DNA of 64,000 nucleotides from Longimicrobiales bacterium. GTDB lineage: Bacteria > Gemmatimonadota > Gemmatimonadetes > Longimicrobiales > Gaopeijiaceae. Of this stretch, positions 19,223-50,228 are shown in pieces (the stretch's first letter is position 1; each line of letters starts with the position of its first letter). Both the position numbers and the translations under genes were made by a program. The stretch is taken from NCBI GenBank assembly GCA_965238005.1, contig OZ250165.1:2688001-2752000 (forward strand). The letters are read 5' to 3'. The notes beneath the pieces were generated by a model. It was not told where the DNA came from and did no database searches. It saw only the letters and a list, made by a program, of their open reading frames with translations.

Positions 19223-21972
19223 TCAAGCAACCGTCTTTCTGCCTGCCATCTTCGTGTACAGCTCGAACAACTTCTCCAGCCGTTCCGTATCGTTTCGGAA
19301 GCGTCGGCCGATGTAGATGCGCTCGAGCACTTCGTCGTTGCGGTCATGGGCGGCGCGGAGATTCTCCGGCATGCGGTCAGAAGCGTAGAGATCGGCGATC
19401 GTCGCGGGGAAGTGCGCCTCTTGCGCCAACAGGATGTGCTCGGCGCATGCCGTCAGGTCCGCCCTGTTTTTCTCGGTAAGCGTCGGCACGGGAAACGTGT
19501 TCCAACCCAAGGTGTTTGAATACTAGAAATCCGTCCGCAACCGAACACAAACCGTGCCGATCCAAACCCAATGGAGCCGTGACGCGACCAGCGCCATGTT
19601 CCAGAGCGGAGCATCGAAGAGGCCGTAGCACTTGTTCGATATGATGACTCCAGGCGGTAACAGGCCACATGGCAGGTAATCACGATTCTCTGAAGTAATT
19701 CCCGGAACGACGATCGTACTTTCGATTCCGATATTCATCTCGCGAAACTGGTGCGCTCGACTAGCCATCTGGTTGGCACCCTTGTCCCTGCTCTCGAGCC
19801 GCATGGCACGCACGGCCTCCACGCGGCTTCGGATCGACGGAATCGCAAGCGCTTCTTCCAGGTGTTCGTCCTCAATCCACAGGCAGTAACGTGAGAGCCC
19901 GCGAATGAACTCGGCCGAACCGTAGATGCGCCGGATGAATCGGGCCTTCTGTTCGGGGGTCAGTCCCAAGCTCTCTACTTCATCGCGGGTGAGGAGCAGG
20001 TTCCCGCCATCAACAGCCTTGTTGCCAAAGCTCATGTCAGTCAACCCGGACGATGGCGTGGAAGCCTTGTTTACGATCACGTTCGGCCCTGCCACCAAGT
20101 ACACATTGATACTCTTGGCCTCTCTCCGGATCGTCTCCCCATCTTTGCCGACGGAGTAGAGCCTTCGAACGGGCCCCGCGTCGTTCGACATTCCTACGAT
20201 TGCGACGGTTACGCCTGCGTTGTGGCTGGCCAGGTTCGTCCACTTGAAGCTGGTGTGAGCGAAGGCGATCTCCTGGCCCGTGGCAAAGACCGCGGGCCAG
20301 AGGATCGCCGCCTGCTGTCCCTGATTGAGCGAATTCGTGGTCACCAAGGCCGACGCCGCACGGGTCGTCTCCATGTAGCCGGCCGCCTTCATGAACCACC
20401 CGGCCACATAGTCGAGCAACCGCCACTGCTTCACCCTGCCCTTGAAGACCTGCTCGAGGTCTGCCTTCTGTGCCGACGACTGCCACGTACTCCCGAGGTA
20501 CGGGGGATTCCCGCAGATGTACGTCTCCCCGCCCTCGTTCTCGAAGTCGATCTCGGGTTGATCCAGTGGCGTGTGGAACAGGTCATCGCCAACGTGCTTC
20601 ACTCCGGTCCCCGTGGGTGGGCAGATGCCGCTCCAATCCAGCCGCAGGGCGTTCGCACAGGTGATCCAGTTCTCCTTGTCGAGCGGCAGGACCACGGCCA
20701 CTGCCTCCTTCTGCCCGAGATAGAGCACGTTGCACTGATACTCGGCGATGATGAGTGCTAGGCGTGCGATCTCGGCCGAGAAGTCCCTGAGCTCGATCCC
20801 GCGAAAGTTGGTCAGCGGAATGTCGGAACGGCGCCCGCTCTCCCGCCGGCGCCTGTTGATCTCCGCCTCGATCTCCCGCATCTCCTTGTAGGCGATGACA
20901 AGGAAGTTGCCCGAACCGCACGCCGGGTCGAACACCCGGATCCGAGCCATGCGGTTGCGCAGATTCAGGAGCTTGCGGTTGTTGTCACCGGCCTCCTGGA
21001 GCTGCTCGCGCAGATCATTGAAGAACAGCGGGTTGAGGACCTTAAGGATGTTCGGCACGCTCGTGTAGTGCATGCCCAGGTCGCCGCGTTCCTGCTCATC
21101 CGCGACCGCCTGGATCATCGATCCGAAGATGTCCGGGTTGATCTTTTTCCAGTCGAGACTGCCGATGTGAAGAAGTAGGATCGCGCGATCCGGCTGAAAC
21201 GCGGTACCTCCGTCGAGTCCGAGAACAGTCCACCGTTGACGTATGGGAACACTGCGGCCCAGCGGGAGAGGTTTGCCGTCTCGCGTTTCTCCATACTGGT
21301 GTTCATGGCACGGAAGATCTCGTCGATTACCTCATGGGTGTTCGAACCATCGGGGGTGCTCATCTGCTCGATCGTGCCGGTGAACGGGGCCTGGTCGGGG
21401 AAGATATTGGTGTCCTCCGCGAAGAAGCAGAAAATGAGCCGCGCCATGAAACGGTTCATGTCATGCTGCCGGTCGGTGGCGCCCCAGTCGGCGTTGTCCT
21501 TCAGCAACTCGACATAGAGCCGGTTCAGCCGCCCAGTGGCCTTGATGTCGAAGGCGCTCTCGCGGATCTGCGTGACGGTCGTGATCCCGGCGAGCGGCAG
21601 GAAGAAACCGAAATGCTCGTGAAAGTCGGGATATTCGCAGACGACGATGTCGCCGCTCTCCACATCCTCGGCGTGGAACTCTCGCCCGTCGGTCGACAGG
21701 ACGAACTTCGCCTTGGCCCGGGTGGTCTCTGGACTCGCCTTCAGGGCGGCCAGCGCAGCCGCGGCCTCGCCCTCCGGGGCGACCTTGATATGGATGTTGT
21801 TCCGCTGGAGGACCCCACCGATATCGGACCGATTCGTAGTGCCGGCGCGGAGCCGCTTGATGGTTGTCCGCTTGTTTCCGAACGCTTCCAGGAAGGTGAA
21901 GGGAAACTCGCCCGGATCGAACAGCTCCCCGGCGAGGTCGGAGACAGCCTCTTCAATCTCGACGGCATTCAT
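19223..21972 (-). pseudogene. yeeA: MmeI-like Type IIG/IIL methyltransferase (YeeA-like), disrupted
   Basis: MNAVEIEEA..., YVNGGLF, GMHYTS, FDPACGSGNF and GNPPY; frameshift near 21176 (SY/LLHIGSLDWKKINPDIFGSM); in-frame TAG at 19523-19525 (RTDF*YSNTLGWNTFP). Confidence 0.82.
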
Positions 21973-33280: not shown

Positions 33281-34059
33281 CGCGGCGCGGCGCCGGCCGC
33301 GCGCGGGACCCGCCTTGAGGGCAGGGCGTCGCGTGTCCTGAGCAGGTGCGGGTCCGCCCGCGAGGGACGCGGGCGAGTCAGGCGCCCGGCCTGACCGGGT
33401 TGCGCTCAGCCGAGGCCTGACGCGCCCCGGTGAAACCGTGCGTGCGGGTAGGCTTAGGTCAGAGGTGGCTCTTGGCTCTTATAATGGTGGATCACTTCGC
33501 CTCCCGATTTGTCAACCCCTAATTCGATGTATTCTACTCCGTGTTCCGAGGGCCGAGCAAGTGGTAACCCCACTCAGCCTGGAACGAGCGGTGACTCCAA
33601 GCTCCCTCTCGGACCTACGCTGGGAGTGCTCGTCGAAGCTATGGACGGCCGAATCGGATTCTGGCCTCATCGAAGCCTACGACCGGGTTCACCGCAATGG
33701 GTCTGGTCCGGGAGCAAGTTGCCCTTGGACTCTTTCCCAGGGGGGAGAGACGAGCTGACGACGAAGCGGCGAGGGGCTATTCCACTGCGGCACCACCCGG
33801 CAAACGGTGCGCCTCTCCGGGGCGCACTTCCGGTGACCTGCCTGCCTGTCATGCCACGACTGGGATGTGCAAGACACGTCGGGGGTCGATACACAGATTG
33901 CCCCGGCAGCGATTCACACGGGCGCGGCTCTTCATGCGATTGTAGCTAATGCAGTTACGCCTTGTGCTGGCCGGTCGGCGCGGCAAACCGGGCAGCACCG
34001 AGGTTGACGGGAGGCGACCCCCCGATCTGACGATCCGGTACGGGGGTTCGGGGGGCATC

Positions 34060-34143
34060 CCCCGCCCGCGAACTCCGCCGGAGCGCGGGCCTCCTGGGGG
34101 ATCGAAGGGGGAGCGTGGAGCATCCCCTCGCCAGATCGCAATG
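34060..34143 (-). other. Distal half of a ColE1-type oriT (copy 2), cut at the hairpin loop
   Basis: Minus strand CATTGCGATCTGGCGAGGGGATGCT matches 11787-11811. Confidence 0.7.
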
Positions 34144-34850
34144 GTAGAGTCGAGGGCTGGCGCGCCGACGGTAGGGTCCGGTGGCTATTCCGTCGCTTTC
34201 GCTCCGGGCCTCAGACCGGCTCCCATAGTCACGTTTCCAGTCCCCGCTCATCGGTAGGGTCGGGAGCTGGCGCGCCGACGGTAGGGTCCGGTGGCTGTCC
34301 CATCGCTTTCGCTCTGGCCCTCAGTCCGGCTCCCGTGACCACGTTTCCAGCTCCCGCCTCGTCAAACGCAGCATGCGGTTTTCCCGCACTACGCTTTCCT
34401 GTTGCCTTCATCCCATGGGTTATGGGGCCTACTGAGCCGGGAGCGCTTTCGGCGACAGATAGCGAACCCGGTACTGTGAGAACAATCCGAGCCGCTCATA
34501 TAGCCATCGCCTACTCCACCTCTTCCAGCCAAATCCCCGACGTCCGCGCTGTTGCATCAGATGTCGCCGTATCTTCTTCTCGACCCAATCCTTGACCTGA
34601 CCGAAACATCTGCTCGCATGCCCTACGCAAAAATAGTTCACCCATCCACGCAGGATCGGGTTGATCAGGTCCACGACCTGCTCCACCGGTTGCGAGCGAT
34701 AACGTCGGAACACTTCCTTGAGTCGGCGCAGGAGTTTGGTGCGTGCCTTCATTGTCGGCACACACCTCACCCCCCACTTGCCCCGCCGCGTTTTCGCACG
34801 GCGGATCTCAAACCCCAGAAAACGGAAACTCTCGCCATTGGCAAGATCAA
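34144..34850 (-). mobile_element. Group II intron 3' remnant: maturase end, domain V and two tandem domain VI/3' ends
   Basis: DV AAGCGTAGTGCGGGAAAACCGCATGCTGCGTTT (about 34364-34396); 3' ends GACCCTAC at 34254 and GACTCTAC at 34144. Confidence 0.85.
34429..34850 (-). pseudogene. ltrA: Group II intron RT/maturase C-terminal fragment without endonuclease domain
   Basis: FRFLGFEI (RT7) and LINPILRGWVNYF (domain X). Confidence 0.85.
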
Positions 34851-34957
34851 CAGCGACACTGCAACTAGGAGCGTCCTACATAACCCACTGCGGTAGCTAT
34901 AGTTAGATAATCTTACCAGACACATATGGATTGTATTGGAATCTGTGTGTAGCAGAC
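34851..34957. mobile_element. Integrase-proximal end of a sibling integrative element
   Basis: Alignable with 46062-46168, including the shared block CTTACC.GACACATATGGATTGTATTGGAAT. Confidence 0.75.
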
Positions 34958-35212: not shown

Positions 35213-35310
35213 GTAGTGAAGAAGCTCCGCCCGAAGCTCGGCGACGACGCGGCCAGACCGGGCCTACGTCTTCAACGAGCGCGGGGTCGGCTACCGGATG
35301 GCGAGGCCGG
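35213..35310 (+). pseudogene. OmpR/KdpE-type response regulator C-terminal remnant
   Basis: VKKLRPKLGDDAARP (frameshift) YVFNERGVGYRM. Confidence 0.5.
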
Positions 35311-35348
35311 ACGGGGCGTACCGGACGGGGCGTACCGGACGGGGCGTA
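35307..35348. repeat. 14-bp tandem repeat, three copies
   Basis: CCGGACGGGGCGTA three times. Confidence 0.9.
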
Positions 35349-35590
35349 CTCCGTCACTGGCGGTCCGGGGGCCCGCACAGCCCGCCTCGCGGATCTGCGT
35401 CACCCCCGGGCCCTGGCGGCGCCCCGCCCCGGACTGCCACGCGGCGCAGGCGCCGAGACAGCTCGAGGGAATATCCGCCGAGATCGCTCTGGGATCCGTA
35501 CCGCCGGCTTCCCCCACCAAATCCTTCACCAGATACGCGTAGCGCGCCCGGGACGCAGACCTGTGACGTTCCCCGGACAGGTTGCTGGGT

Positions 35591-35905: not shown

Positions 35906-36744
35906 GGCGGTGTGCTAGAGCTCGAGCGTGGCCGGGTCCCGCTCGGCGGGACCTCGTATGGAGCTGCGGTCGCCGTCTTGGCCCAGTGCTTGAAGCACCC
36001 GTGCGCGGCCAGCGGCTCCGTTGGCATGGACGACGAACCCGGCGTTGGCCTTGGCTCGGATGGAGGGGGCCCGGTAGTTACCCGAAGCGACCTCAATGTT
36101 GACACGTCCGGTCCGCCCGTCGGCGTCGACGCACTCGATCTGGGCGTCCGGATAGAGCACGCGGCCCCGGGCATCTATGGGTAGGCCGAGTTCGTGGGCG
36201 GCGCGGTGCCGCTCGGCGTCGGCGGCCCGCCGGCCGTCTCTCGCCCGCGCGGACTCGCTCTTGCGTGCTACGGCGCTCTTGAGCTCGCCGTCGAGCCGGA
36301 CGCGCCGGATGGCGGCGCCCTGCGTGAGCAGGCGTTGGTGCTCCAGCCGGCAAGCGCGATAAATGGCAGTGTCGTGTGCGGCTTCGGCGGGCCGGGTACG
36401 TGCGAACCCGATCTCCTGACCGGGATCCAGCCCTCGCGCGGAGGCCAGCTCGCGTGCGGCGGCGCCGCCGCTCCGTGTGAGGGTCAGGACCTTGAACGGC
36501 CTTCCCTTTGGTCCCTTGGCCGTGGACTCCTTGACGAGCCCTTCGCGGATCCAGGCGTTCACGGCCCGCCGCGTGGTGTAGGGATGCCCGCCGAAGTGAG
36601 CCTCGGCGAGATCGCGGTACGAGACGGCGCCGTAGATGCCGATGTCGGCGAGCGCCCCACGGCACCGTTCTCTGAAGGAGGTGGACCCGCGGTCCCGGCT
36701 CGCGTCGTATTCTCGGCGATGGCCGTCCCGCATGCGGTAGCTAG

Positions 36745-38345
36745 GAGTCTGCGCCGCAGAACCCTGCGGCGGCTATCTTTGGTGGTAGCGAAGGCATTGG
36801 GAAGGCTTGCGGATCACCGAGGGGGGTGAATGGGAACGACATTTCGACCGTACGATCCGGAGCAGATGTTGTTGCTGCCTCCGGATCTTCGGGAGTGGGT
36901 GTCGGAGGGTCATTTGGCGCACCATGTGAGCGACCTGGTGGACGCGGTGGAGCTGAGCGCGTTCTACGGGCGGTACCGGGGGGACGGGCGGCGCAACTCG
37001 CCGTACGACCCTCGGATGATGGTCAAGGTGCTGATCTACGCGTATGCGACGGGCACCTTCTCGTCGCGGAAGATGGCGAGGAAGCTGGAGGAGGATGTCG
37101 CGTTTCGGATGCTGGCGGCGGAGAACTTCCCGAAGCACCGGACGCTGTGCGAGTTCCGCAAGCGCCATCTCGGGGATTTCCGGGCGGTGTTTGTGGAGGT
37201 GGTGATGCTCGCGCGGGCCTTGGGGCTGGCGGGGCTTGGCAGGGTGTCGGTGGACGGGACGAAGGTTCGGGCGAACGCGAACAAGCGCAAGGCGATGAGC
37301 TACGGCCGGATGGTGACCGGGGAGCCTCGGCTGGAGGCGGAGATCCGGGGGCTGTTGGAGAGGGCCGAGGCGGTGGACGAAGCGGAAGACGAGCGCTACG
37401 GCGAGGAAGCATGCGGAGACGAGGTGCCGGAGGAGCTCAAGCGGCGCGAGGACCGGCTGGCGGCGATCCGGGAGGCGAAGGCGCGCCTGGAAGCCGAGCA
37501 GAGAGCGGCGGACGACGCACGGGGCCGCAAGCCGGGGCAGACGCGCAACCCGAAGGGCGGCAGGCCCTACAAGCGGGAGTACGGAGAGCCGGACGAGGCG
37601 GCGCAGAGCAACTTCACGGACCCTGAGAGCCGGATCATGAAGACGAGTTCGGAGGGGTTCCAGCAGTGCTACAACGCACAGACGGTCGTGGAGGGGGAGA
37701 ACCAGCTGGTGGTCGGGGCCGAGGTGACGGACAACGCGAGCGACCAGGGCCAGCTGGTGCCCATGGTCGACGCGGTGGCGCAAGCGTACGGCGAGACGCC
37801 GGCGCAGGTGCTGGCGGACACGGGCTATTGCAACGAGCGGGATCTCGAGGAACTGGAAGAGCGAGACATCGACGGGTATGTGGCGCTGGCCCGGGAGGGC
37901 AAGGCCGCCCCCACGGTTGACAAGGAGGAATATCCGGCGAAAGTCCGCATGGCGGAGAAGCTGGCGAGCGAAGATGGCCGCAGACGCTACGCACGGCGAA
38001 AGTCGCAGGCCGAGGCGCCCATCGGCTGGATCAAGGAAGTGATGGGCTTTCGACGATTCAGCTACCGGGGCCTCGAGAAGGTCCGGGCCGAGTGGACCCT
38101 CGTGTGCCTGGCACTCAATGTGAAGCGGCTGCACACCCTTCAGGCGGCATGACTGCACGAGGGTTCACCCGCATCTGCCGGCGCGAGGGCTCTCGTAGCT
38201 CTCTTGCCCCCCCAACGCATCCATTCCGCTCTCCCGATCCGTCGCAGACACAAGTCCTCAACCTCCCAATCACCCGGATCCGCCTCGCCGCGGACGGCTC
38301 GATGACCATTCGGCTCAGTCAGCTGTGCTTCTGCGGCGCAGACTC
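36745..38345 (+). mobile_element. Complete IS1182-family element, 1601 bp
   Basis: Perfect 17-bp terminal inverted repeats GAGTCTGCGCCGCAGAA; CTAG duplicated at 36741-36744 and 38346-38349. Confidence 0.92.
36830..38152 (+). CDS. IS1182-family transposase
   Basis: PYDPRMMVKVLIYAY..G.FSSR, VDGTKVRANA, TDPESRIM, YNAQ and LADTGY. Confidence 0.92.
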   Translation: MGTTFRPYDPEQMLLLPPDLREWVSEGHLAHHVSDLVDAVELSAFYGRYRGDGRRNSPYDPRMMVKVLIYAYATGTFSSRKMARKLEEDVAFRMLAAENFPKHRTLCEFRKRHLGDFRAVFVEVVMLARALGLAGLGRVSVDGTKVRANANKRKAMSYGRMVTGEPRLEAEIRGLLERAEAVDEAEDERYGEEACGDEVPEELKRREDRLAAIREAKARLEAEQRAADDARGRKPGQTRNPKGGRPYKREYGEPDEAAQSNFTDPESRIMKTSSEGFQQCYNAQTVVEGENQLVVGAEVTDNASDQGQLVPMVDAVAQAYGETPAQVLADTGYCNERDLEELEERDIDGYVALAREGKAAPTVDKEEYPAKVRMAEKLASEDGRRRYARRKSQAEAPIGWIKEVMGFRRFSYRGLEKVRAEWTLVCLALNVKRLHTLQAA

Positions 38346-38425
38346 CTAGCGCGGTTTTGCGGCGCGGCGGGCCGCGGGTCCGATCCGATCGTGCGGTCGA
38401 GCATCTGTCGACTCCTTCTTTGGCG

Positions 38426-39454
38426 TCAGCGGCCCGGACCGAAGTTCCGTTTGGGGAGCGGCAGCGGGAGCTCCGGCCTTGCGGCGTGCTGCGGGTCGGG
38501 AGCCCGAGTGGCGGCCACCGGAGTGGGCTCCCGCTCGGCCTGGCGCTCGCGGCTCCGGGCCAGCACGAAGTCGGAGATCTTCTGTGCGTCGGCCGCGGCG
38601 CGGCGGATCTCCCTTGGGTCTTCCTCGAGGGCAGTGACCCACCCCTCGACGTAGGCGGCCCCTCGGCTCGGGTCATGGCCGACGCCCACGCGCTCGCCGG
38701 TCATCATTGCGCTGATCTCCGCGCGGAGCTCCTCCTTCGCATAGGCCGGTGAGCCGAACCCTTCGCCGATCCCTTGGGTGAGCGTGGCGCGGTTCATCCG
38801 CTCGGGATGGCCCGTGCTGTGCCCCAGCTCGTGCAGCGCGGTCTGGTAGTAGTGGTTCGCCGAGGGGAACTGTCCCCTCTCCGGAAGCACGATCTCGTCG
38901 CGGTTCAGGTTGTAGAACGCCCGGTCGCCGGCCATGTGACGGACGGGGACCCCGCTGTCCTCGAGGACGCGTTCGGCCTGCTGGTGGACCTTCCAGAGCG
39001 GCTCGGCAGCGGGCGCGGGCCGCGCGGGCAACCCGTCGGCCTGCTCGGCGTTGAAGACGGTGTACTGCCGGACGACGGGCGCGCGCATCCGCTCGTATCG
39101 GTAGACGCGCTTGCCTTCGTTGTCCGTGACGGGCCGTCCGCGCTCGTCGTTGACGGCGATCTTCCGGTGGTCCTGGAAGGAGAGGATGCGGGTGCCCTGC
39201 TCGCCCTTCCGCACCTGTCCGCCCCGGGCTTGGATCTGGCGGTAGGTTCCCCAGCGCACGTCGCCGTAGCCGCGCTCCTGCTGGACGGCGGCAAGGTGCA
39301 GGCTGTTCCCTCCCGAGTAGGAGCGTCCGGTATCGACGTTCGCGGGAAGCACGCGCTCGCCCGGCCCCCAGGGCTTCTGCCAGGGCGCCGTGCCCTGGCG
39401 GATCTGCTCGATGACCCGGTCGGCGAACTGGCGGTGGTATTCGTCGTGTTTCAT
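38426..39454 (-). CDS. ardC: ArdC-family ssDNA-binding antirestriction protein
   Basis: PWQKPW, TGRSYSGGN and GGQVRKGEQG; zincin-like HELGHSTGH. Confidence 0.85.
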   Translation of the reverse strand: MKHDEYHRQFADRVIEQIRQGTAPWQKPWGPGERVLPANVDTGRSYSGGNSLHLAAVQQERGYGDVRWGTYRQIQARGGQVRKGEQGTRILSFQDHRKIAVNDERGRPVTDNEGKRVYRYERMRAPVVRQYTVFNAEQADGLPARPAPAAEPLWKVHQQAERVLEDSGVPVRHMAGDRAFYNLNRDEIVLPERGQFPSANHYYQTALHELGHSTGHPERMNRATLTQGIGEGFGSPAYAKEELRAEISAMMTGERVGVGHDPSRGAAYVEGWVTALEEDPREIRRAAADAQKISDFVLARSRERQAEREPTPVAATRAPDPQHAARPELPLPLPKRNFGPGR

Positions 39455-39655: not shown

Positions 39656-39925
39656 TCACTCCTTTTCTGTTTGTTCTTCATCGTCCTTCCTCCAGACGGG
39701 TTCGGTGAGCCAGCGGTTGGCGGCCGCCTCGTAGCCCTTCACACGGAGCGCTTCCTCGACGAACCTCCGGCCCCCTCGCCGGGTCATGTGGACAACGAGC
39801 GAGATGCCGTCGACGACGCCCCTGCAGGTCACCTCCCAGGGGAGCGCGCCTCCGGCCTGCATGGCGCAACTCGCCAGGCGCGAGAGCGCGGAGCGGGCGT
39901 TGTTGGCGTGCACGGTGGTGAGCGA
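39656..39925 (-). pseudogene. trbB: VirB11/TrbB-type ATPase, C-terminal half
   Basis: SLTTVHANNARSALSRL continues the GHGG of the half at 46169-46889. Confidence 0.85.
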
Positions 39926-40425
39926 GCAGCTATCAACGATGTGCTTTAATCGTCGTAACTATATGATATATAGTTAGTTACAGATGAAGTAGTTTTTGGT
40001 ACGACTCGTTTCTATCGTATGTGATCCCGTATAAGCGGCGGGCGATTACACGGGAGCGTACGGTACGTTCGCGGAACCCGTGACGGGTTCTGCCTTCGGC
40101 GTCGCGCGGGGCTGAGGAAGACCCGGCAGGTGACGACGTGGCGATCCCGAAAACTGGAATCTCGTCGCGACGGCGGGGGCGTTCGGGCACATGCTGGCGA
40201 CGCGCGATGAGGCAGTCCCGAAGCGGGCCGGACGGTATGCGTTCGGGTCAGGGGATTATGAGGCCCTTGCGGGCAAGGTGTTTTCACAGGTCTCGCGGAG
40301 AGCGGGAAGACTCGCCAGAGGCCGAGAAGCCCTCAAGATGGGTCAGAGAAAGGGAGGGGAGGGTCCCAGGCTCCTGAGGGTCCTCCCTCCAGCTAGTGCG
40401 CTTCGGATCGCCCGCCGAACTCGAT

Positions 40426-41375
40426 CTATAGCCTGAACTTCGATTTGTGGATGTGGAACCATTCGCTAACCGCGTCGATGGCTACGCCCACCTGATCTCG
40501 CAACGTGCCAGCGCCGTCGCGAAGAGCCGCATCTGCAGCTTCCTTCGTTGCTACCACCTTCTCTACGGCAGCAGCGCGCGTGTCGTCCCCGATCGCCTGC
40601 CAGATGCGCTCACCCGAATTCCACGCGTACAAGCTTCCACCCACTCCTGCGAAACCCACCAGCACCGGAGTGCCCACAGTGACACCCAGCGCGCTCGCCG
40701 TGGCAACTACGCCGACTGTCGAACCGACGACAGCCGTGGCAATACTGACCGACCGCGCGAAATCAAGCACCGCAGTCCAAGCGCCTTTCGCCCGTTTACC
40801 ACGTGCAGCGTCTCCACAGAAGCTGAGACGGGCAATTCCACCAGGGCGCCGATTGCGCCGCCCCTCGCGAGGCTGGCCAGAATTGGGCGACGTGCAGCTC
40901 CCAAGCCCATGCGGGCGTTGTGCGTGTGCATCCGCAGCTTGTCCGGGAACCCCATGTCTCTGGGACCACGTCCTTGGTTCCATTTCGGAGGCTCAAAGAC
41001 CACGTTACCGGCGCTGGCCGCCAATTCGGGATGGCGATTCACTGATCGTATATGACTCACGTCATGGACGTCGAGAAAGCCCAGTACCGCCTTCCCACCT
41101 GCCACCCGAACACCGCCGGGAATCTTCCTATAGAGATCCTCCGCAGTTACCCGGCCGACATTTGCTCTCCAATTGACCGTCGATGCCCGCTGATTCAGCC
41201 TCGTGTGAACTTTGGGCAGGTCACTCAATCTCGCGGGAATGAGTTCGGCCCAGATTTTCTCCACCCACGGAGTCATGACTGAAGCTGCTTGCGACTGCAA
41301 ACCGACATTAGCGTGAGCTGACAGAGGTCCAGCAACTGCTAGGGTGACCAGAATGATGGTCACAAAGACCCTCAT
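40426..41375 (-). pseudogene. Signal-peptide protein with possible HNH-like motif and hydrophobic C-terminus; frameshifted near 40780
   Basis: MRVFVTIILVTLAVAGPLSAHA; DVSHIRSV..HPELA....NVVFE...WN..RG; two overlapping frames. Confidence 0.45.
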
Positions 41376-41795
41376 GGCTCTCCTCATGCGGGAAGCGGAC
41401 GACTGCCGGAGTGCGTCATCGGTACGCAACGGCCCGAGCACGGCAGACTGACCCCGTCATCCTAAACGTAAGTCCGGACGGCCACCTGCGTCCATGTCCG
41501 TTGCGCTCCCTCAGCGGCTTTCAGAGCGGCGATCACAGGTGGCCCCGAAGGCCCCACGGGGCCGTGACCCGGGGAGTTCGTCTGTTTCACGACCGCGGCA
41601 GGGCCGAGAGGAGCCCTCAGTGGCCGTCAGAGCCGACTTCTCGGCGCCGGATGACCCACAGGGGACCCGGGGATCCACTGCGGACGGTCCTCTCACACAT
41701 TGCGGAGCGCTATCGGTACGGTTTCTTATTGAGGCTGCGCCGCTGATAATCGTCAGCCTGCGTGCAAGCCATATTGCCAAGGGGTTACCCGATAG

Positions 41796-42560
41796 ATGAG
41801 TCTCGCTCAGGCAGTGGTGCAAGCAAGCCGCGCATTCGACCACGTCGCCCGCCGGACATGGTGCGTCAAACCGGCTGTGCCGATTCTTTTTTTCGGCGAC
41901 CTCGACGCGTATCGAGCTTCGCCGCTACACGTGCTGACGGTCGGACTGAATCCCTCGCGGCATGAGTTTCCGGCTGACCAGCCGTTCCTGCGCTTTCCGC
42001 TCGCAGAAGGCGGCCTTGGCGGGGAGCCATCCCGGTACCTCGAAGCAATGTCCGCCTATTTTCGAATCGCCCCCTACGACGGGTGGTTCAGCGCCTTCGA
42101 GCCGCTGCTCAACGGCATGAAGGCGAGCTACTACCACGGCGGCGCATCGACGGCGCTCCACACCGACATCTGCTCACCCGTCGCGACGAACTCGACGTGG
42201 AACGACCTCGACAAAGCTGATCGTGAAGCACTCGAGTCCGATGGCGGCCCGCTCTGGCACATGCTTCTGGAGGAGCTAGAGCCACAAATCGTGGCTCTGT
42301 CGGTGGCGAAGGCTCACCTCGAGGGCATCAAGTTCACGCCCTTGACCAGTTGGGAGGTCATCCACGCCTTCGAGCGGACAGGCAGCGGCGCCCTTCGGTC
42401 CCGACCGTACGAGGTCCACGCACGGTGGTACGACGTAGGCGGTGAACGGTCGCTGTTCATCTTCGGCAGAGCAGCTCAGAAGCCCTTTGGGCTGCTGGCC
42501 AACACCCACAAGCGCAAGGCAGGCGCGGTGGTACTGAAGGCATATCAGGATGGCCGATAA
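41796..42560 (+). CDS. Uracil-DNA-glycosylase-fold protein (atypical)
   Basis: ILFFGD...VLTVGLNPS motif A; HTDIC.P.AT; LLEELEPQIV. Confidence 0.55.
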   Translation: MSLAQAVVQASRAFDHVARRTWCVKPAVPILFFGDLDAYRASPLHVLTVGLNPSRHEFPADQPFLRFPLAEGGLGGEPSRYLEAMSAYFRIAPYDGWFSAFEPLLNGMKASYYHGGASTALHTDICSPVATNSTWNDLDKADREALESDGGPLWHMLLEELEPQIVALSVAKAHLEGIKFTPLTSWEVIHAFERTGSGALRSRPYEVHARWYDVGGERSLFIFGRAAQKPFGLLANTHKRKAGAVVLKAYQDGR

Positions 42561-43539
42561 GCGTTGCTTCGTTCAGTTCCCGCACCCGGGGGGCGAGCAC
42601 CGACCCGACCGTAGCGGAAGTAAGCCGTGGCACACCCGGGCAAGCAGCCATGCGCGGAAGTTCATGCAGTTCCCTGGCGAGTGGATTGCGTCGGACGACA
42701 GCCCGCACCGCGGCGAATTGTGGGCGTGGGGCGAGTGGGAGCCCGAGTCGCGCCTCATTCGTGAGCTCGACCAGTCCCGTGGCAACCGGGACTATCCGCG
42801 TTACCTCTGGCAGCCGTACTACGTCCTGAGGGACAACTACCGGGGACTGCACAATACCGACCCGTTCATCTTCGGCGAACGCTTCCTCTATTCGAACTGC
42901 CGTCAAGGGGCCCACAGCCCCGGCTTGATGCGCCTCGGTGAGGGGTCCGTGATCGCCTTCGGCAGCGGTAAGCAGGGAGTCGGGGGCGAGTGGAGATGGT
43001 GGCTCGATACCGTGTTCGTGGTCGCGAATTCCGATCTCTATCCGGTATCCGAGGCAGACCGGGTGCTGAAGGACTGGACGTCTGACGTGTTCGGCATCGT
43101 GACCGGCGGACCGCTCGCCGACAACCACGAAGGCGGGTGCGCAGCGGACGTGCGGCTCAGGCTCTATCGGGGCGCGACGCCGGACGATCCGGTGGACGGA
43201 ATGTTCAGCTTCTTCCCCGCGCAGCCCGCCGGTGACGGGACGGGCTTTCCGCGACCGGGCATCGACCTGCCAAGCGAGTACTTCAACCCCGCCTGCTATA
43301 TAGCTCCCAAGGGGGTCAGCCGCGAGCACTGCCGCGATCAGCTACACTCGATCTGGATGGCCCTCGTCGCGCAGGTGCGGCAAGCCGGGCTCGTGCTCGG
43401 CACATACGCGGAAGTGCCACCACAACGGGCACACACGGGTGCTTCTAACGATCTGAACACCGACGGAAACCGTTCTCTGGGAACGACCGCTCAGGTCCCG
43501 CTCAGGGCACCGAGATGCGGCAGATGTGCACAGCCATGA
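42550..43539 (+). CDS. Hypothetical protein, possibly nucleotide-modification-associated (Nmad-like)
   Basis: Clean ORF overlapping the upstream gene by 11 bp; HNTDPFIFG..FLYSNCRQ...L.EGSVIAFGS...LDTVFVV. Confidence 0.5.
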   Translation: MADKRCFVQFPHPGGEHRPDRSGSKPWHTRASSHARKFMQFPGEWIASDDSPHRGELWAWGEWEPESRLIRELDQSRGNRDYPRYLWQPYYVLRDNYRGLHNTDPFIFGERFLYSNCRQGAHSPGLMRLGEGSVIAFGSGKQGVGGEWRWWLDTVFVVANSDLYPVSEADRVLKDWTSDVFGIVTGGPLADNHEGGCAADVRLRLYRGATPDDPVDGMFSFFPAQPAGDGTGFPRPGIDLPSEYFNPACYIAPKGVSREHCRDQLHSIWMALVAQVRQAGLVLGTYAEVPPQRAHTGASNDLNTDGNRSLGTTAQVPLRAPRCGRCAQP

Positions 43540-43584
43540 TCAGCTCCTCCTCACAGCCTCTGCCACGTATGGGCAGGTGGAGGA

Positions 43585-43940
43585 CTTGATGATCCAGGCT
43601 TCCGAGCGTCGGGCGACGAGTTCGTTTAATGTACGAGAGCCAGCATACCCCTTGGGGCCACGCTTCGCGGGTCCCGGGCAGGGGCTGGCGAGGGGTAGCT
43701 CCGCCCCCCTTCGAACCCCCGAGGCCCGCGCTCCTGCGGAGTGCTTTGCCCCCCTCCCCCTTGCCGGTGCGCTGATGGCTGAGCGCCGCACGTCACCGCC
43801 GCCGCCCGCGTATCGCCAGCTGAGCTCACCGACTGGCGGGCCACGGCAACGGTCGCTGGCGTGCCTCTCTCGGAGCTGATGCGGCAAGCCATGGCACGCG
43901 CACGGACGTGGGCCGCCCCGACATCGGCGGAGCGAGTGAT
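43585..43940 (+). pseudogene. mobC: Degenerate oriT (copy 3) and mobC remnant
   Basis: Homologous to 11700-12060; GAGCCAG in place of TAAGCCAG; ATGGCTGAGCGCCG at 43775, frameshifted. Confidence 0.65.
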
Positions 43941-43973
43941 ATTGAACCCACGCTACCATTGGGAGGCATGCCG

Positions 43974-44606
43974 ATGACGGGCACCGTGGTCGGATACGAC
44001 CCTGGTGGCAACCGCAAGCATGGACTTGCGTGGGCGACGGTTGAAGACGGGAATATCGTCAACGTGACTACGAAGACCCTCTGCAACGTTGAGGAGGTGG
44101 TTGCATTGATTTTCGATATCGAAACACCCCTTGGGCTCGGTATCGACACCCTCACCTGCTGGGGCACTGGTCGCAGTGGCTGGCGTCCGGCGGATCGCTG
44201 GCTTCGACGGCGCTATCCCGACGTGCAGAACAGCGTCCAAGCGCCAAACTCCCTTTACGGGGCCATGAGCGTCAGCGGAATGGCATTGCTGGTCGCCGTG
44301 CGACAGGCCTTCCCCGACATCTTCGTTACCGAAACCCACCCCAAGGTGCTGTACCACGCGCAGTGCAACGAACGCTACGACTACAACGGCCCGAACACAT
44401 CCGTCATGAACAAGCACCTGAGTCGATTGCTCGCCGTCGATGTCGCACTTCAGAACGAGCACGAGTGGGACTCTGCCATCTCGATTCTCGCGGCCGTCCG
44501 TGGACTTCATGGGTTATGGCAGCGTGACCTGCACGCTCTGCCGACCGATTCCGACGAACGTTTGGTGCAGCCGTGCGGCAGGACGGCCTACATGTGGCCC
44601 GAATAG
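43974..44606 (+). CDS. DUF429-like RNase H-fold predicted nuclease
   Basis: VVGYDPGG, LGIDT, R.ADRWL, ETHPK and HEWDSAIS; GGAGG RBS. Confidence 0.7.
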   Translation: MTGTVVGYDPGGNRKHGLAWATVEDGNIVNVTTKTLCNVEEVVALIFDIETPLGLGIDTLTCWGTGRSGWRPADRWLRRRYPDVQNSVQAPNSLYGAMSVSGMALLVAVRQAFPDIFVTETHPKVLYHAQCNERYDYNGPNTSVMNKHLSRLLAVDVALQNEHEWDSAISILAAVRGLHGLWQRDLHALPTDSDERLVQPCGRTAYMWPE

Positions 44607-44689
44607 AATGTCGGGCCGGTCATCCGGCTCCCAACCCCACTAGCCGGCCCTCGGACTCGCGAGGCTTTTGGAGCGGATCGCTCGCGAAC

Positions 44690-44780
44690 TCCGCCGGAGC
44701 GCGCGCCTCCAGGGGATCGAAGGGGCGGAGCCCTCGCCAGCCCCAATGTACCCACATTGGGTAGGCTGGCTTAAGCACCT
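44690..44780 (-). other. ColE1-type oriT, copy 4
   Basis: CTGGCTTA at 44766-44773; hairpin CCCAATGT-accc-ACATTGGG; about 45 bp downstream of the integrase. Confidence 0.7.
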
Positions 44781-44818
44781 TAGTCTCCGCCTGAGGTGCC
44801 GCGACGGTGGGCTGCAAC

Positions 44819-46006
44819 CTATGGCTTGCGACTGTCGCCGGTGAGGTACGCAGCCCAAAGCTCCATCAGGACGCGCCTGCGCTCGAACAGGTCGGAACGA
44901 GCGTAGGCGGCCTCCGCCTTGTTGCGGACCACGTGCGCCAAGGCCGCCTCCATGACCGCATGGGGGGTGTCCGTGCATTCGGCCGCCCAGTCCCTGAAGC
45001 TGGACCGGAAGCCGTGCGGCACGGCCGCGATGCCCAGTCCTCGAAGCAGCCTGGGGAGGTTGGTGTCGGAAAACACGCGGCCCTCCGGCGACGGGAACAC
45101 CAGACCGCCACCACCGCCGAGCGTCCGCGCCTCCTCGAGGATCACCATGGCGCGCCCGGACAGCGGCACCCTGTGGGGGCGCTGGGCCTTCATGCGCTCA
45201 CCGGGGATGGTCCACTCGGCCGTCTCGAGATTGATGTCATCCCAGCTTGCCAAGCGAACCTCACTGGAGCGGCACGCCGTCAGCACCAGGAACTCGAAGG
45301 CGAGCCTTGTCGTGAGGGTCGACGCCGAAGTCCGGGCCGCCTCGATCGCGCCCGCGACCTCCGCGTGAGGCAACGCGCGCATGTGCCGGACTACGACGCG
45401 CTGTCGGCCGAGCGCTTGACCGAGCACATCGCCAGCGGGGTTGTCCGGCCGAAGCTCCATCGCCACCGCCCACTTCATCACCGCCCCGATGCGCTGGCGC
45501 ACCCGCCGGGCGGTCACCTGCTTGTCGTGCCAGATCGGTGTCAGAACCGCCAGAACGTCGGCTGTCGTTATCTCGCCGACCGGTCGATTGCCCAGCTGTG
45601 GGAACGCATAGACGCGCAGGCTGGTGACCCAGTCCTTCGCATGCTTGGCGGTACGCCAGCCCGGCCGCAGCTGTTCCAGAACACGGGCGGCCGCCTCGGC
45701 GAACGTGGGCATGTCCCGGATCTTGTGCCGCTCGGTACGCGGATCGCCGCCCGAGCGCGCGATCTTGCGGTTCATGAATGCCTTCTCGCGCGCCTCGGCC
45801 AGCGATACCAGCTGGTAGCCCCCGAGCCCCATCGTGCGGGGTCGGCCCTGGATCCGTAGACGCTGCTCCCATCGGCGCGCGCCGGATCGGTCCACGCGCA
45901 GATAGAGGCCGTTCCCGTCACAGTAGTATCCGGGCTTGGCACTGCGCACGAAGGCCGCGCTGAGTGCGTTGTGCGGGCGTCTCCCTCGGTGTTTGGGCAA
46001 ATCCAT
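44819..46006 (-). CDS. P4-type tyrosine integrase
   Basis: DGNGLYL arm domain; TACRSSE, HGFRSSFRDW and LAH...AAY. Confidence 0.92.
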   Translation of the reverse strand: MDLPKHRGRRPHNALSAAFVRSAKPGYYCDGNGLYLRVDRSGARRWEQRLRIQGRPRTMGLGGYQLVSLAEAREKAFMNRKIARSGGDPRTERHKIRDMPTFAEAAARVLEQLRPGWRTAKHAKDWVTSLRVYAFPQLGNRPVGEITTADVLAVLTPIWHDKQVTARRVRQRIGAVMKWAVAMELRPDNPAGDVLGQALGRQRVVVRHMRALPHAEVAGAIEAARTSASTLTTRLAFEFLVLTACRSSEVRLASWDDINLETAEWTIPGERMKAQRPHRVPLSGRAMVILEEARTLGGGGGLVFPSPEGRVFSDTNLPRLLRGLGIAAVPHGFRSSFRDWAAECTDTPHAVMEAALAHVVRNKAEAAYARSDLFERRRVLMELWAAYLTGDSRKP

Positions 46007-46168
46007 TTCCTATATCCCGTATAAAGTATCGTATGACATGTACGGGAACATAGCGGACATACAGCGACTCTGTAACCCGGAGTGTAGTTATATAACTAAC
46101 TGCTATACTGAGAGTTATATAACCTTACCGGACACATATGGATTGTATTGGAATTTATGTACTGGAGA

Positions 46169-46889
46169 TGAGCGATCCGCCGTGGCCAGTGTTCAGCGCT
46201 TGGAGGAGATCGGCGGCCTCGCCGCCCCTGACCTCTCCGACGACGATGTGGTCGGGCCGGTGGCGGAGCGCGTGCCGGACCAGGTCGCGGATCGACACGG
46301 GCGCGTCGGAGCCGACGGCTCCGGCCTCGAAGCGCAGGCAGTTCGCGCGCTCGATCCTGAGCTCGAGCGTGTCCTCGATGGCGACGATCCTCTCCTCCTC
46401 GGGGAGCAGCTCGATCAGTGCGTTGAGGAGTGTGGTCTTGCCCGAGCCGGTGCCTCCGGAGACCAGGATGTTGCGCCGCGAAGTGAGAGTGTCGCGGGCG
46501 GCGCGGAACACCGTCTCTGGCAAGGCGCCCTGGCCAACGAGGTCTTCGGCCGAGAACGCGCGGCCCCCGAACCGGCGGATGGTCATAGCCACGTGGGGGC
46601 TTGCGGGCGGCGTGCATATGGCGACCCGGGAGCCGTCCTCGAGCCGCGCGTCTAGGACGGGCCGTGTGGCCGGATCGAGCCCGAGCGGCCTGGCGATGTG
46701 GATGGCCGCCCGGTAGAGTGCCGCGGCGGTGAGCGCCGGTGCCTCGATGGGCTCGAGCTCTCCGCCGCGCTCGACCCAGACGTTGCCGGGGCCGTTGATC
46801 ATCAGCTCGGAGACCTCCGGATCCTCGAGCACGGCCTCGAGGCCGGGCAGAAACGGCTTCAGATGCCCGATCCCGCTCGCGCGCTTCAT
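46169..46889 (-). pseudogene. trbB: VirB11/TrbB-type ATPase, N-terminal half
   Basis: GGTGSGKTT, IEDTLEL, LRHRPD.IVVGEVRG and LNTGHGG. Confidence 0.88.
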
Positions 46890-48168
46890 AGCCGGCCCTC
46901 CTCGCGGAGCCGCCAGTAGCCCGTGCTCCTCGGCAGGTAGTGGGGCTGCAGGTAGACCCGCCGGGCCGGAAGGGACTTCGTGCCGTCGTAGGGCAGGCAG
47001 ATCGCCTGATAGTTGGCGAGGAGCGTGAAGTCCCTCGGCGTGAACACCGGCTCCCGTGCCTGCCGGAACGACTTGCTCGCGCCGATCGTGCCCCGTCCGC
47101 CTCCGGCGCGTCCCGATAGCAGCGAGAACTCCGGCCTGCCCGTCGTCTCGGTGAACGTGTAGGACGGCTGCGTCTTCATGACGCTGCCGCACATCTCCGA
47201 TGCGATCCGGGCCGAGGACTCGTCGCTCAAGGACAGGAAGATCCGGGTGCGGAGCGTCTGGACCAGGGTGCGCCACGCGTCCGTGCCCGACAGCACGGAG
47301 CGGAGCGAGGAGATCGACTGCGTCGCGACGATCGGGATGCAGCGGCACTGCCGCGTCAAGGCGAACGCCTTCTCGTCGCCAGCGGGGTCGTCCTGGCCCA
47401 CGGTCGCGAACGCTTGGTACTCGTCGCAGATGAACACGGCGGGCCGGAGGTAGCGGCCGGGCCGGCGGGCGGCCTCGGCGGGCCGCCGGAGCAGCGCCTG
47501 CATCCAGGCGTTCTTGAGCAGCACGCCGATGGCGCGTCCGAGCGCCGGGTTCGCGCCGGCGGGCATGTTGAGGGCCAGGACCCTGCCCCCTTCGATCAGC
47601 TCGGCGAGCGGCGGCAGGCGGCGGCGAAGGCCCGGCATGGGCCGGACGGCCGCCGCATCCTCGTCCGGTGTCTCCTTATATAGATGTGTGGGCGCATCCG
47701 GATCCGGAGGCGGCGGACAGAACACGCTCGCGACCTGCGGCTGGTCGAAGAGCGAGAGGAAGACGGAGATGCCCTCGACGATCGAGGTGCGGAGCTTGGC
47801 ATCGAGCGCCATCCAATCGTTCAGGTACCAGCGCTCGATCGCCTCGACCTGGTCCTTGAGTTCGCTGCCTGCGCCGCTCTCGCCTTTCTCGGTCTCGAAC
47901 GGGATCTCGAACTCGGCGAGCCGATCCCGGAGGACCGGGTCGAGCCGGCACGTCACCGTGTCCTCACCGGAGGTATATATCCAGACCCAGTCATTCAGCG
48001 CTTCCGGATGGCCGATCATGTCGTCGTGGGAGATGACGACGCGCGCCGGGCACGCCTCAGCCACCAGGTCCTTGGCCTCGCGGATTCTCTCGGCGAATAG
48101 TTCCGCGTCGATCGTGCAGCGGTAGATGTCCTGCAGCGTGACCCAGCCCCCCGGCAGGAGCCGGTGCA
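46886..48168 (-). pseudogene. VirD4/TraD-type coupling protein, C-terminal half
   Basis: FICDEYQAF Walker B and IVATQSISSL; joins 62580-63342. Confidence 0.82.
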
Positions 48169-48701
48169 ACCTATCTAAAAGGCTCGTAAGTCGTTGTGGG
48201 TATTACCTAATCGGTTTGCGCGTGTCTAACAGTGCCCCCAGAGTTGCCCCATAATCGCACCCGCATCCAGCGCTCGCCATCAGCGTCCATTGCGATCCAG
48301 CATAGCGGAGCCATCGTCTCGGCCCCGCGGGTGCCAGCTGGCCGGCGCGGCCGCCCCGCAGGGCAGCCTAGTAAGATCATGCTATATCATCCGAGGCAGC
48401 CCTACGGACTGCCTCGGACAGCTAAATAACTCATTTTATACAAACGAGTTATATATTTAGCGACGGTGCTCTGCCCCCCATTATTTCCACCGGGACGAAA
48501 CGGATTTCCTCGGCCCTTCGTGGCCGTGAACGGACGCGTCAGTCCGAATGCCACGCGGCCACGCGCCCAAGGCCGAGCGGCTGAGCGTGGGGTCGGTGAT
48601 GCTCCGATCCGTACCGCCTGTGCCCAACCGACCCGGCGTCACGCCGCCCAACCAGTGGGTAGCATCTCCGCCTGTTCGAGTACCGCCCGCATCGCCATCA
48701 A

Positions 48702-49971: not shown

Positions 49972-50075
49972 TAAGGTGCGTAAGCCAGCCCACGCAATGT
50001 TAAACATTGCGAGCTGGCGAGGGGGGTGCTCCGCCCCCCCTTCGACCCCCCGAGGACCCGCGCTTCGGCGGATTT
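49972..50075 (+). other. ColE1-type oriT, copy 5
   Basis: TAAGCCAGCCCACGCAATGTTAAACATTGCG at 49981. Confidence 0.7.
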
Positions 50076-50228
50076 CGTGGGCGGGGGACTCCCCCCGGCC
50101 ACGGGCCATACTCTCGCTCTGGCCCATGCTCGGACCGCAAGACGCCGTGGACCGTGGATGTAAGCGTTCGGCGGGGCCATGAGGATGGCGCCGGACTTGG
50201 CCCACAACGGGGCTCCCTGACGGGGCGC

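Follow-up and report, generated by a model that had tools for sequence, protein, structure and literature searches.

A mobile gene pair of a Longimicrobiales bacterium that probably encodes a Brig3-BapA-type anti-phage defence operon

Introduction

What might two overlapping genes of no named protein family be doing as cargo of a small integrative element, and does a third gene lying downstream belong with them? The question is raised by a 64,000-nt stretch of the genome of a Longimicrobiales bacterium (contig OZ250165.1, positions 2,688,001 to 2,752,000), here called the window, within which gene positions are counted. Gene A (41796-42560, + strand, 254 aa) and gene B (42550-43539, + strand, 329 aa) have reading frames that overlap by 11 nt, and gene C follows on the same strand, ending at 44606. 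From the sequence alone, an earlier reading had proposed that the three genes supply a glycosylase, a modified-base reader and a nuclease to an undescribed defence system against modified DNA; the list of open reading frames agrees with it as to the positions of the three genes and the overlap and co-orientation of A and B. The analysis described here favors, with a probability of roughly 0.78, a Brig3-BapA-type anti-phage defence operon formed by A and B and carried by a 6.24-kb integrative element. Gene A would encode a Brig3-type DNA glycosylase of the uracil-DNA glycosylase (UDG) superfamily, predicted to be specific for 5-hydroxymethylcytosine (5hmC), and gene B a BapA-like protein with an enlarged PUA/ASCH-type double beta-barrel, predicted to be a glucosyl-5hmC hydrolase. 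The first proposal is retained as the favored reading insofar as it has a Brig-type glycosylase defending the cell against modified DNA.

Each of the three genes belongs to a large conserved family of unnamed proteins (998, 789 and 668 relatives of A, B and C, respectively, at E<=1e-3), and all three are therefore taken to be real. None of them matches a family of Pfam, NCBIfam, PADLOC or PHROGs at threshold, C alone giving a sub-threshold match to DUF429, and searches of PDB sequences with single sequences and with profiles yielded nothing meaningful for any of the three; the best match of the B profile in the PDB, to RPB5 (E 0.011), was judged spurious. The public gene call of B begins at Met39 (P0123, 291 aa). 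Residues 1-38 are nevertheless conserved, with His12 and Glu16 present in 41 of 42 sequences, His34 in 40 and Arg36 in all 42, and the long start of B, and hence its overlap with A, is therefore considered correct. Scanning of positions 41300-44850 gave no promoter-like site, and two terminator-like sites against 1.9 expected, which is uninformative.

Gene A and its kinship to Brig3

An AlphaFold model of A, built on a 71-sequence alignment, reached a pLDDT (predicted local distance difference test score) of 96.7, and comparison of the model with known structures shows the alpha/beta fold of the UDG superfamily, which had first been assigned on short motifs. The Pfam UDG model (PF03167) does not match A of the window, and sub-threshold matches were obtained for 16 of the 71 relatives, the best at E 0.0028. 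Uracil-DNA glycosylases of family 4 and the UdgX type (4zby, 1ui0, 6ail) are only 8-13% identical to A. Family 4 enzymes carry a four-cysteine Fe-S cluster, which A, with two cysteines only, therefore cannot hold, and the asparagine of its first motif (GLNPS) presumably resembles that of the MUG/SMUG type.

A is related to the antiviral Brig glycosylases, and to Brig3 in particular. The Brig3-BapA operon was reported by Mejia-Pitta et al. 2026 (bioRxiv 10.64898/2026.02.25.707755; PMC13160076), and in the portions of that preprint available here brig3 is described as the gene of a UDG-superfamily 5hmC glycosylase, placed first in the operon and followed by an overlapping second gene of unknown family, bapA, whose product strips glucose from glucosyl-5hmC. 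Six residues of Brig3 (Phe31, Asn50, Pro51, Ser52, Arg53 and Glu55) correspond to A residues Phe33, Asn52, Pro53, Ser54, Arg55 and Glu57 at an offset of +2, and five more (Tyr97, Trp100, Phe101, His125 and Asp127) to Tyr94, Trp97, Phe98, His122 and Asp124 at an offset of -3. All 11 of these positions thus map onto A, whereas the best of 5000 shuffles of A recovered 6. Ten of the 11 are invariant or nearly so across the 71 relatives, Arg55 being the exception, and Glu57, the counterpart of the hydroxymethyl reader in Brig3, is invariant (71/71). Arg197, Gly229 and Asn233 of Brig3 likewise correspond to Arg194, Gly232 and Asn236, and the wedge residue Asn225 to Gln228, a position held by glutamine in 33 and by asparagine in 20 of the 71 relatives. 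A therefore retains the residues for base stacking (Phe, Tyr, Trp, Phe, His), for reading of the hydroxymethyl group (Glu) and for excision (Asn, Asp). Mutation of Brig3 Asn50, Glu55, Trp100, Asp127, Arg197 or Asn225 abolishes defence, according to the same preprint; the first five are kept in A, and the sixth is changed conservatively, to Gln228.

The likeness extends over the whole protein. A is colinear with the printed Brig3 sequence (Fig. S1D of the preprint) at full length, 254 against 250 aa, with about 100 of 250 residues identical (~40%, counted by eye), and the blocks VxTVGLNPSRxEFP, TALHTDxCSPxAT, PTW and AA[N/Q]xPFG, also recognized by eye, are common to both. By this comparison A is a full-length homologue of Brig3.

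Gene B and the question of a modified-base reader

The model of B is of lower confidence (pLDDT 88.6) and ends in a disordered tail (residues 298-329); a Foldseek search with it returned no PDB match at E<=1e-3. Below that level, Foldseek placed 5guq (ZmASCH) and entries of its mutants at ranks 2-7, and VIA placed them at rank 6, with weak scores. The only structural neighbours of B are of the PUA/ASCH/YTH/EVE type, comprising YTH domains, ASCH/ASC-1 proteins, N-terminal domains of McrB, a complex of THYN1 with 5-methylcytosine (5mC), and VcaM4I and PD-T4-3, which are modification-dependent restriction enzymes; TRIP4 and YqfB, also among them, are proteins that we take to be of the ASCH class. 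Several of these neighbours were solved with modified DNA or RNA, judging by their entry titles. B thus resembles in structure both the PUA-superfamily sensors of type IV restriction (the EVE-HNH protein VcaM4I, 6yex; McrB N-terminal domains, 6p0g and 6n0s; PD-T4-3, 9u75) and ASCH proteins (ZmASCH, 5guq; YqfB, 9kyf). The scores are individually weak and point one way, and B is modelled accordingly as an enlarged PUA/ASCH-like double barrel.

BapA, as described in the preprint (PMC13160076), likewise consists of two beta-barrels with an ASCH-like fold, for which ZmASCH (5GUQ) was the best match, and Asp101, in its base pocket, is essential for it. Asp104 of B, within the motif NTDPF, is invariant in the family (42/42), and it was likened to BapA Asp101 by numbering (+3). 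By numbering also, the flexible loop at BapA 186-196 was likened to the block of lowest pLDDT in B (191-200), and the BapA wedge residue Gln252 to B column 251, which holds glutamine in 23 of 42 sequences and isoleucine in B of the window. From gene position, fold description and these few residue numbers, we infer that B is homologous to BapA. By the same analogy B is more likely an enzyme, a predicted de-glucosylase of BapA type with an ASCH-like fold, than the passive reader of modified bases that it was at first supposed to be.

That supposition had been tied to a likeness to Nmad domains, in which B would be an Nmad-family (Nmad3-like) reader connected with a base-modification pathway. 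A cluster of the ESM Atlas with a cosine of 0.88 to B (rank 14), in which 26% of the members carry Nmad3 (PF18754), offers a soft lead in this direction. However, B does not match any of the Nmad models, PF18754 included, at E<=0.1, and none of 42 family members does so at E<=1. A true Nmad3 protein from a related genome scores 260 bits to PF18754, and its hhalign comparison with the B profile gave a probability of 0.18%; the structural neighbours of B, moreover, are of the PUA/ASCH/YTH/EVE type instead. A literature search on Nmad3 found nothing pertinent. The Nmad likeness was accordingly abandoned, and an Nmad-type reader is regarded as extremely improbable.

Most relatives of B end about 35 residues earlier than B of the window. 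The tail (residues 291-329, window positions 43420-43539) recurs near-verbatim in P0138 and in part in P0128, and looks like a subclade-specific extension that arose from a lost stop codon.

Proposed mechanism and comparison with known systems

If the pair acts as Brig3-BapA is described to act, B would flip glucosylated 5hmC out of invading phage DNA and hydrolyse off the sugar. A would then flip the exposed 5hmC into its aromatic cage, with Glu57 reading the hydroxymethyl group, and would cleave the glycosidic bond by means of Asn52 and Asp124, excising the 5hmC base. The resulting abasic sites would block phage replication, and host DNA, having no 5hmC, would be spared. Glucosyl-5hmC as the precise substrate of the pair in its own host is less certain than the assignment of the pair to a Brig3-BapA-type defence operon.

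The locus and the Brig3-BapA operon, as far as the latter is covered by the available portions of the preprint, share gene order and overlap, a UDG-type gene being followed by that of a protein without known sequence family that is modelled as an ASCH-like double barrel, as well as a location among defence and type IV secretion genes; by numbering, an invariant Asp of window B lies three residues from Asp101 of BapA. Restriction-modification genes of Type ISP-like, MmeI-like and Type III kinds are present in the window, together with RelB and two AbiU2 genes. They differ in organism, the window pair being cargo of a 6.24-kb integrative element while the source of Brig3-BapA was one unsequenced soil cosmid (PMC13160076); in the wedge positions, where Asn225 is Gln228 in A and Gln252 of BapA is Ile251 in window B; in the disordered C-terminal tail of about 35 residues in window B; and in that no ADP-ribosylglycohydrolase gene was identified downstream at the window locus by family scan. 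The pair is therefore of an already described kind, and it was not, as first supposed, undescribed. Searches of the literature for BapA with Brig3 found no paper besides the preprint of Mejia-Pitta et al., and those for ASCH together with 5-hydroxymethylcytosine and phage found no other paper on such an enzyme.

Likeness to the other Brig enzymes is more distant. Brig1 (Hossain et al., Nature 2024, PMC11078745), as presented in the preprint on Brig3, is also an antiviral glycosylase of the UDG superfamily that acts on modified phage cytosine, and like A it has a GLNP motif that follows the first core strand. However, Brig1 excises alpha-glucosyl-5hmC directly and acts alone (PMC13160076), its pocket residues Gln81, Trp122 and Gln147 stand in place of the Glu, Trp and Asp of both Brig3 and A, and its row in the printed alignment of the preprint is far less like A than the Brig3 row. 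Brig2, described in the portions available of Getz et al. (bioRxiv 10.1101/2025.10.29.685425) without a partner protein, targets modified thymidines; it and the UDG-like glycosylases of integrons resemble the present case as UDG folds repurposed for defence, patchy in distribution and associated with mobile elements.

Conservation of the pair and the alternative of DNA repair

Genomic relatives of B numbered 365, and the analysis covered the 80 best of these loci. The A profile matched at 47 of them, in 46 directly upstream of B with overlapping ends and in one (L074) directly downstream; A was absent from the other 33, three of which are cut at a contig edge and could not be judged. Fusions of the two activities occur in both orders, A-B in P0363, P0364, P0367, P0368, P0448, P0128 and P0129, and B-A in P0403 and P0410, and in view of the two orders and of the 27-49% identity of the fused proteins to those of the window, the fusions are taken to be independent events. 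Neighbourhood conservation of the pair, proposed at the outset as a check, is thus borne out by the 47 loci and by the fusions. There is no conserved third gene among the 80 loci, the commonest neighbour cluster, of short-chain dehydrogenases, being found at 11. When a fused A-B protein was used as query, 2,512 cluster representatives were recovered at E<=1e-3, and the family is spread over Chloroflexota, Acidobacteriota, Binatia, Alphaproteobacteria, Acidimicrobiia, Nitrospirales and others. To the description of Brig3-BapA, for which no survey of relatives was found in the available text of PMC13160076 (where "homologs" occurs just once, in the introduction), the locus thus adds a large family, a broad phylogeny, travel on small integrative elements and repeated fusion of the two activities. 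For annotation, it allows two large families outside Pfam, NCBIfam, PHROGs and PADLOC, whose members have so far been called hypothetical proteins, to be named.

At one of the 46 loci with A upstream (L001:3371-6008, from a Dehalococcoidia metagenome-assembled genome, MAG), the A homologue is split by an insertion of about 1.9 kb that carries a DDE_Tnp_1_4-type transposase gene.

Several observations weigh against an anti-phage operon of Brig3-BapA type. To our knowledge, no phages with 5hmC-DNA are known for this uncultured host. Substrate and defence role would follow from a single preprint on an enzyme only ~40% identical to A, and the likening of B to BapA was made by position, fold description and a few residue numbers, with weak structural scores. 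At the wedge positions A has glutamine for the asparagine of Brig3, and window B has isoleucine rather than glutamine, although the BapA Q252A mutant is described as fully active (PMC13160076). No model of PADLOC (2023) or Pfam matches A or B. In other genomes the neighbours of the pair are mostly housekeeping genes, and five loci of Dehalococcoidia share a syntenic order, with the pair placed between MurJ and IleRS genes, which fits a role in repair as well.

Base-excision repair as a housekeeping function, in which A would remove damaged or oxidised pyrimidines from cellular DNA with B helping to recognize the lesion, would accord with the metabolic and housekeeping neighbours, with the UDG-superfamily fold of A, and with the residual uracil activity that Brig enzymes are stated to keep in the discussion of PMC13160076. 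A repair enzyme would not be expected to be so patchy, however, the pair being present in only 2 of the 401 genomes that were sampled from the phylum, the window's genome included, nor to be cargo of a mobile element that sister copies of the target in the same genome lack. The invariance of the hydroxymethyl-reading Glu (71/71) also speaks against it, and A is found fused to HEPN_Swt1 (P0414) and to Schlafen AlbA_2/HATPase_c_4 (L020-L022:3546-6008), which points to conflict systems, as well as to DUF6508 (P0397, P0409). Genes of the B family that lack an A partner adjoin McrBC and GmrSD genes (see below). Repair is on balance unlikely, and the defence operon remains preferred.

Gene C as a separate passenger

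Two starts were considered for gene C, a GTG giving 232 aa (43908-44606, + strand) and an ATG giving 210 aa (43974-44606, + strand). The ATG is probably correct, because the closest relatives are ~210 aa long, spanning 91% of the long form, and a GGAGG lies 7 nt 5' of it. The product appears to be a divergent DUF429 (RNase H-like) protein and is a predicted nuclease. C of the window scores 13.2 bits (E 0.073) against DUF429 (PF04250), below the cut-off of 23, whereas 36 of 41 close relatives match, the best at E 5.3e-6, and the first-strand motif GYDPGG is invariant in the family. According to the part consulted of PMC3985635, DUF429 belongs to the RNase H-like superfamily and is probably a nuclease.

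With such an activity next to the pair, it had been proposed that all three genes work together, A making abasic sites, B reading the modified base and C cleaving the damaged phage DNA. C is co-oriented, 434 nt downstream of B and in the same 6.24-kb element, and a nuclease partner is mechanistically sensible because Brig3 is described as having no lyase activity (PMC13160076). Nevertheless, profile search and tblastn revealed no C-family gene within ~6 kb of B at any of the 80 loci, and relatives of C lie on other contigs than those of A and B. The genome contains a second C paralogue (37% identical) and a second B gene, without A, at unrelated places, and in the preprint Brig3 alone or with BapA is enough for defence, no stable complex of the two being reported. 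The spacer between B and C, finally, holds an inverted copy of a repeat called R1 (43681-43742, - strand) and a probable gene remnant. A three-gene system is quite unlikely on these grounds, and C, which occurs in 3 of the 401 genomes sampled from the phylum, is regarded from the absence at other B loci, the paralogue elsewhere and the contents of the spacer as a separate passenger, outside the Brig3-BapA-type module that A and B appear to form.

The probable remnant is an open stretch of 64 codons without start codon (43786-43977, + strand) that overlaps the favored C start by 4 nt; it is ribbon-helix-helix-like by eye only, with no PDB match below E 0.1. An oriT/mobC remnant had been seen between B and C in the sequence-only reading, but the reading frames of the spacer gave no family or PDB match, and nothing beyond this stretch was found to stand for it. 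That C might be a toxin with a ribbon-helix-helix antitoxin was considered and rejected, the stretch having neither a start codon nor a PDB match and the nearest C locus of a relative (L087) having no ribbon-helix-helix gene upstream.

The integrative element and its conjugative surroundings

The three genes (2,811 bp from A to C) make up 45% of an integrative element, here called E1, of 6,243 bp (39926-46168). Its ends were set by uninterrupted sister copies: in a BLAST comparison, loci L090 and L091 match the window at 46407-46169 and at 39925-39300, and have TGAGCGA once at the empty site, whereas the window has it twice, 6.25 kb apart (39919-39925, the target-site copy on the left, and 46169-46175 on the right), and E1 is therefore an insertion of 6,243 bp. 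Its integrase gene (44819-46006, - strand) encodes 395 aa with Arm-DNA-bind_3 (1.8e-17), Phage_int_M (1.1e-27) and Phage_integrase (9.5e-13) domains. With these domains, the 7-bp direct repeats and two empty sister copies, E1 is a tyrosine-recombinase integrative element, and the small mobile element first suggested as carrier of the genes is thus delimited. GC content is 0.61-0.66 within E1 and 0.66-0.71 in its flanks.

E1 was inserted into a conjugative element, between a virB11-like gene and small genes upstream of ArdC. The region is flanked by the ArdC gene (38426-39454), the virB11-like ATPase gene (46155-47348) and a TraG/VirD4-like gene (46886-48169), and E1 sequence forms the final four codons and the stop codon of the virB11-like reading frame. 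The genome is a single 4.84-Mb contig with eight near-full-length virB11-like and at least eight full-length ArdC copies; the gap between the two genes is ~450-480 nt in other copies and 6.7 kb in the window, and E1 is present only in the window's copy. The segment bearing virB11-like and ArdC genes occurs at least eight times in the genome, with proteins 75-91% identical, for example at 876459-879131, 494007-496692, 710115-712800, 842639-845324 and 4830750-4833435 of the contig.

This setting might suggest that the pair works for the mobile element rather than against phages, for example by attacking modified DNA of competing plasmids or elements or by processing transferred DNA. E1 does lie inside a conjugative element and adjoins ArdC, an anti-restriction gene, and type IV secretion genes are labelled near brig3-bapA in Fig. 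S1B of the preprint (PMC13160076). Elsewhere, however, the pair is not beside conjugation genes in most of the 80 loci, and the phenotype given for Brig3-BapA in that text is restriction of phage, so that service to the element is very unlikely and the anti-phage reading of the pair is kept.

Outside the Gemmatimonadota, a Vicinamibacterales MAG (L013:9665-10825) encodes an integrase 60% identical to that of E1 ~2.7 kb downstream of its A and B genes, oriented relative to them as in E1; in that phylum, too, the pair may travel on an element of related kind.

Two further reading frames in E1, overlapping and in different frames (40707-41441 and 40426-40983, - strand), give weak HNH/GHH-type matches (Tox-GHH E 0.064, Geo26A E 0.013), both below the cut-off. 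The N-terminus of the product is signal-peptide-like by eye, and the two frames are possibly one frameshifted gene for a secreted nuclease-like protein.

Repeat R1 is a GC-rich 65-nt sequence. The genome contains at least 19 copies of it, some in each orientation, and they cluster at 0.64-0.87 Mb and 2.72-2.83 Mb. Besides the copy in the B-C spacer, E1 has one just past the 3' end of the integrase gene (44672-44745, + strand), and further copies lie in the window at 34049-34143 and 50005-50097. The other B gene of the genome, a solo one at 640514-641389 of the contig, has an R1 copy ~700 nt downstream. A second repeat, R2 (46089-46160, + strand), lies upstream of the integrase start, inside the right end of E1. 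It occurs four times in the genome, and all but a degraded one have an R1 copy ~1.4 kb away; the copy at 34877-34948 is 81% identical. R1 and R2 were rejected as ends of E1, R1 because of its at least 19 copies in both orientations and R2 because it is internal, the ends being those set by the empty sister copies.

BapA-like genes next to other restriction effectors

The A-B pair itself being of an already described kind, what is new here is the presence in other genomes of solo BapA-like genes behind McrBC, GmrSD and HsdR genes. The immediate neighbours of a handful of the 33 B loci lacking A were sampled, not scanned exhaustively. B is immediately preceded on its strand by McrB-McrC in L064:2496-6888 (Pfam McrBC 9.4e-76; McrB matches PDB 6ut3 at 7e-53), by GmrSD in L041:3880-6864 and by a type I HsdR gene in L036:2794-6969. 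A DNA methylase gene is downstream in L057 and L061, and a DEAD/Cas3-like helicase gene upstream in L078. This arrangement suggests that the de-glucosylase-like B protein also partners restriction endonucleases, serving several effector classes; in the available text of PMC13160076, McrBC and GmrSD are mentioned just as analogies.

It is tentatively proposed, as a reading less likely than not, that ASCH-type hydrolases like BapA form an interchangeable module that strips modifications on behalf of several classes of restriction effector, beyond Brig3. If so, stripping of the sugar or another adduct from hypermodified phage DNA would be a general and unrecognised first step of restriction, and a strategy of stripping the modification and then attacking would extend past glycosylases to McrBC, GmrSD and type I enzymes. 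In uncultured, non-enterobacterial lineages, the substrates would then be adducts of still unknown phages.

Other features of the window

A degraded second integrase module is seen at 34049-34948, with its R1 and R2 copies just 0.8 kb apart. It contains two tandem 105-nt repeats (34143-34357), and at the expected place of the integrase is a fragment of a group II intron maturase (GIIM, 34429-34770, - strand). At 35307-35349, a 15-nt word (CCGGACGGGGCGTAC) occurs three times in tandem, without mismatch and at a spacing of 14 nt. An insertion sequence (36740-38350) lies just past ArdC in the conjugative element; its terminal inverted repeats, of 22 nt, are perfect, and it encodes a DDE_Tnp_1/DUF772 transposase (36830-38152). 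The MmeI-type restriction-modification gene (19223-21972, - strand), which adjoins the RelB antitoxin gene, is split into three consecutive reading frames, encoding in order the N-terminus with helicase spacer, the methyltransferase with target recognition domain, and the C-terminal domain, and is probably broken.

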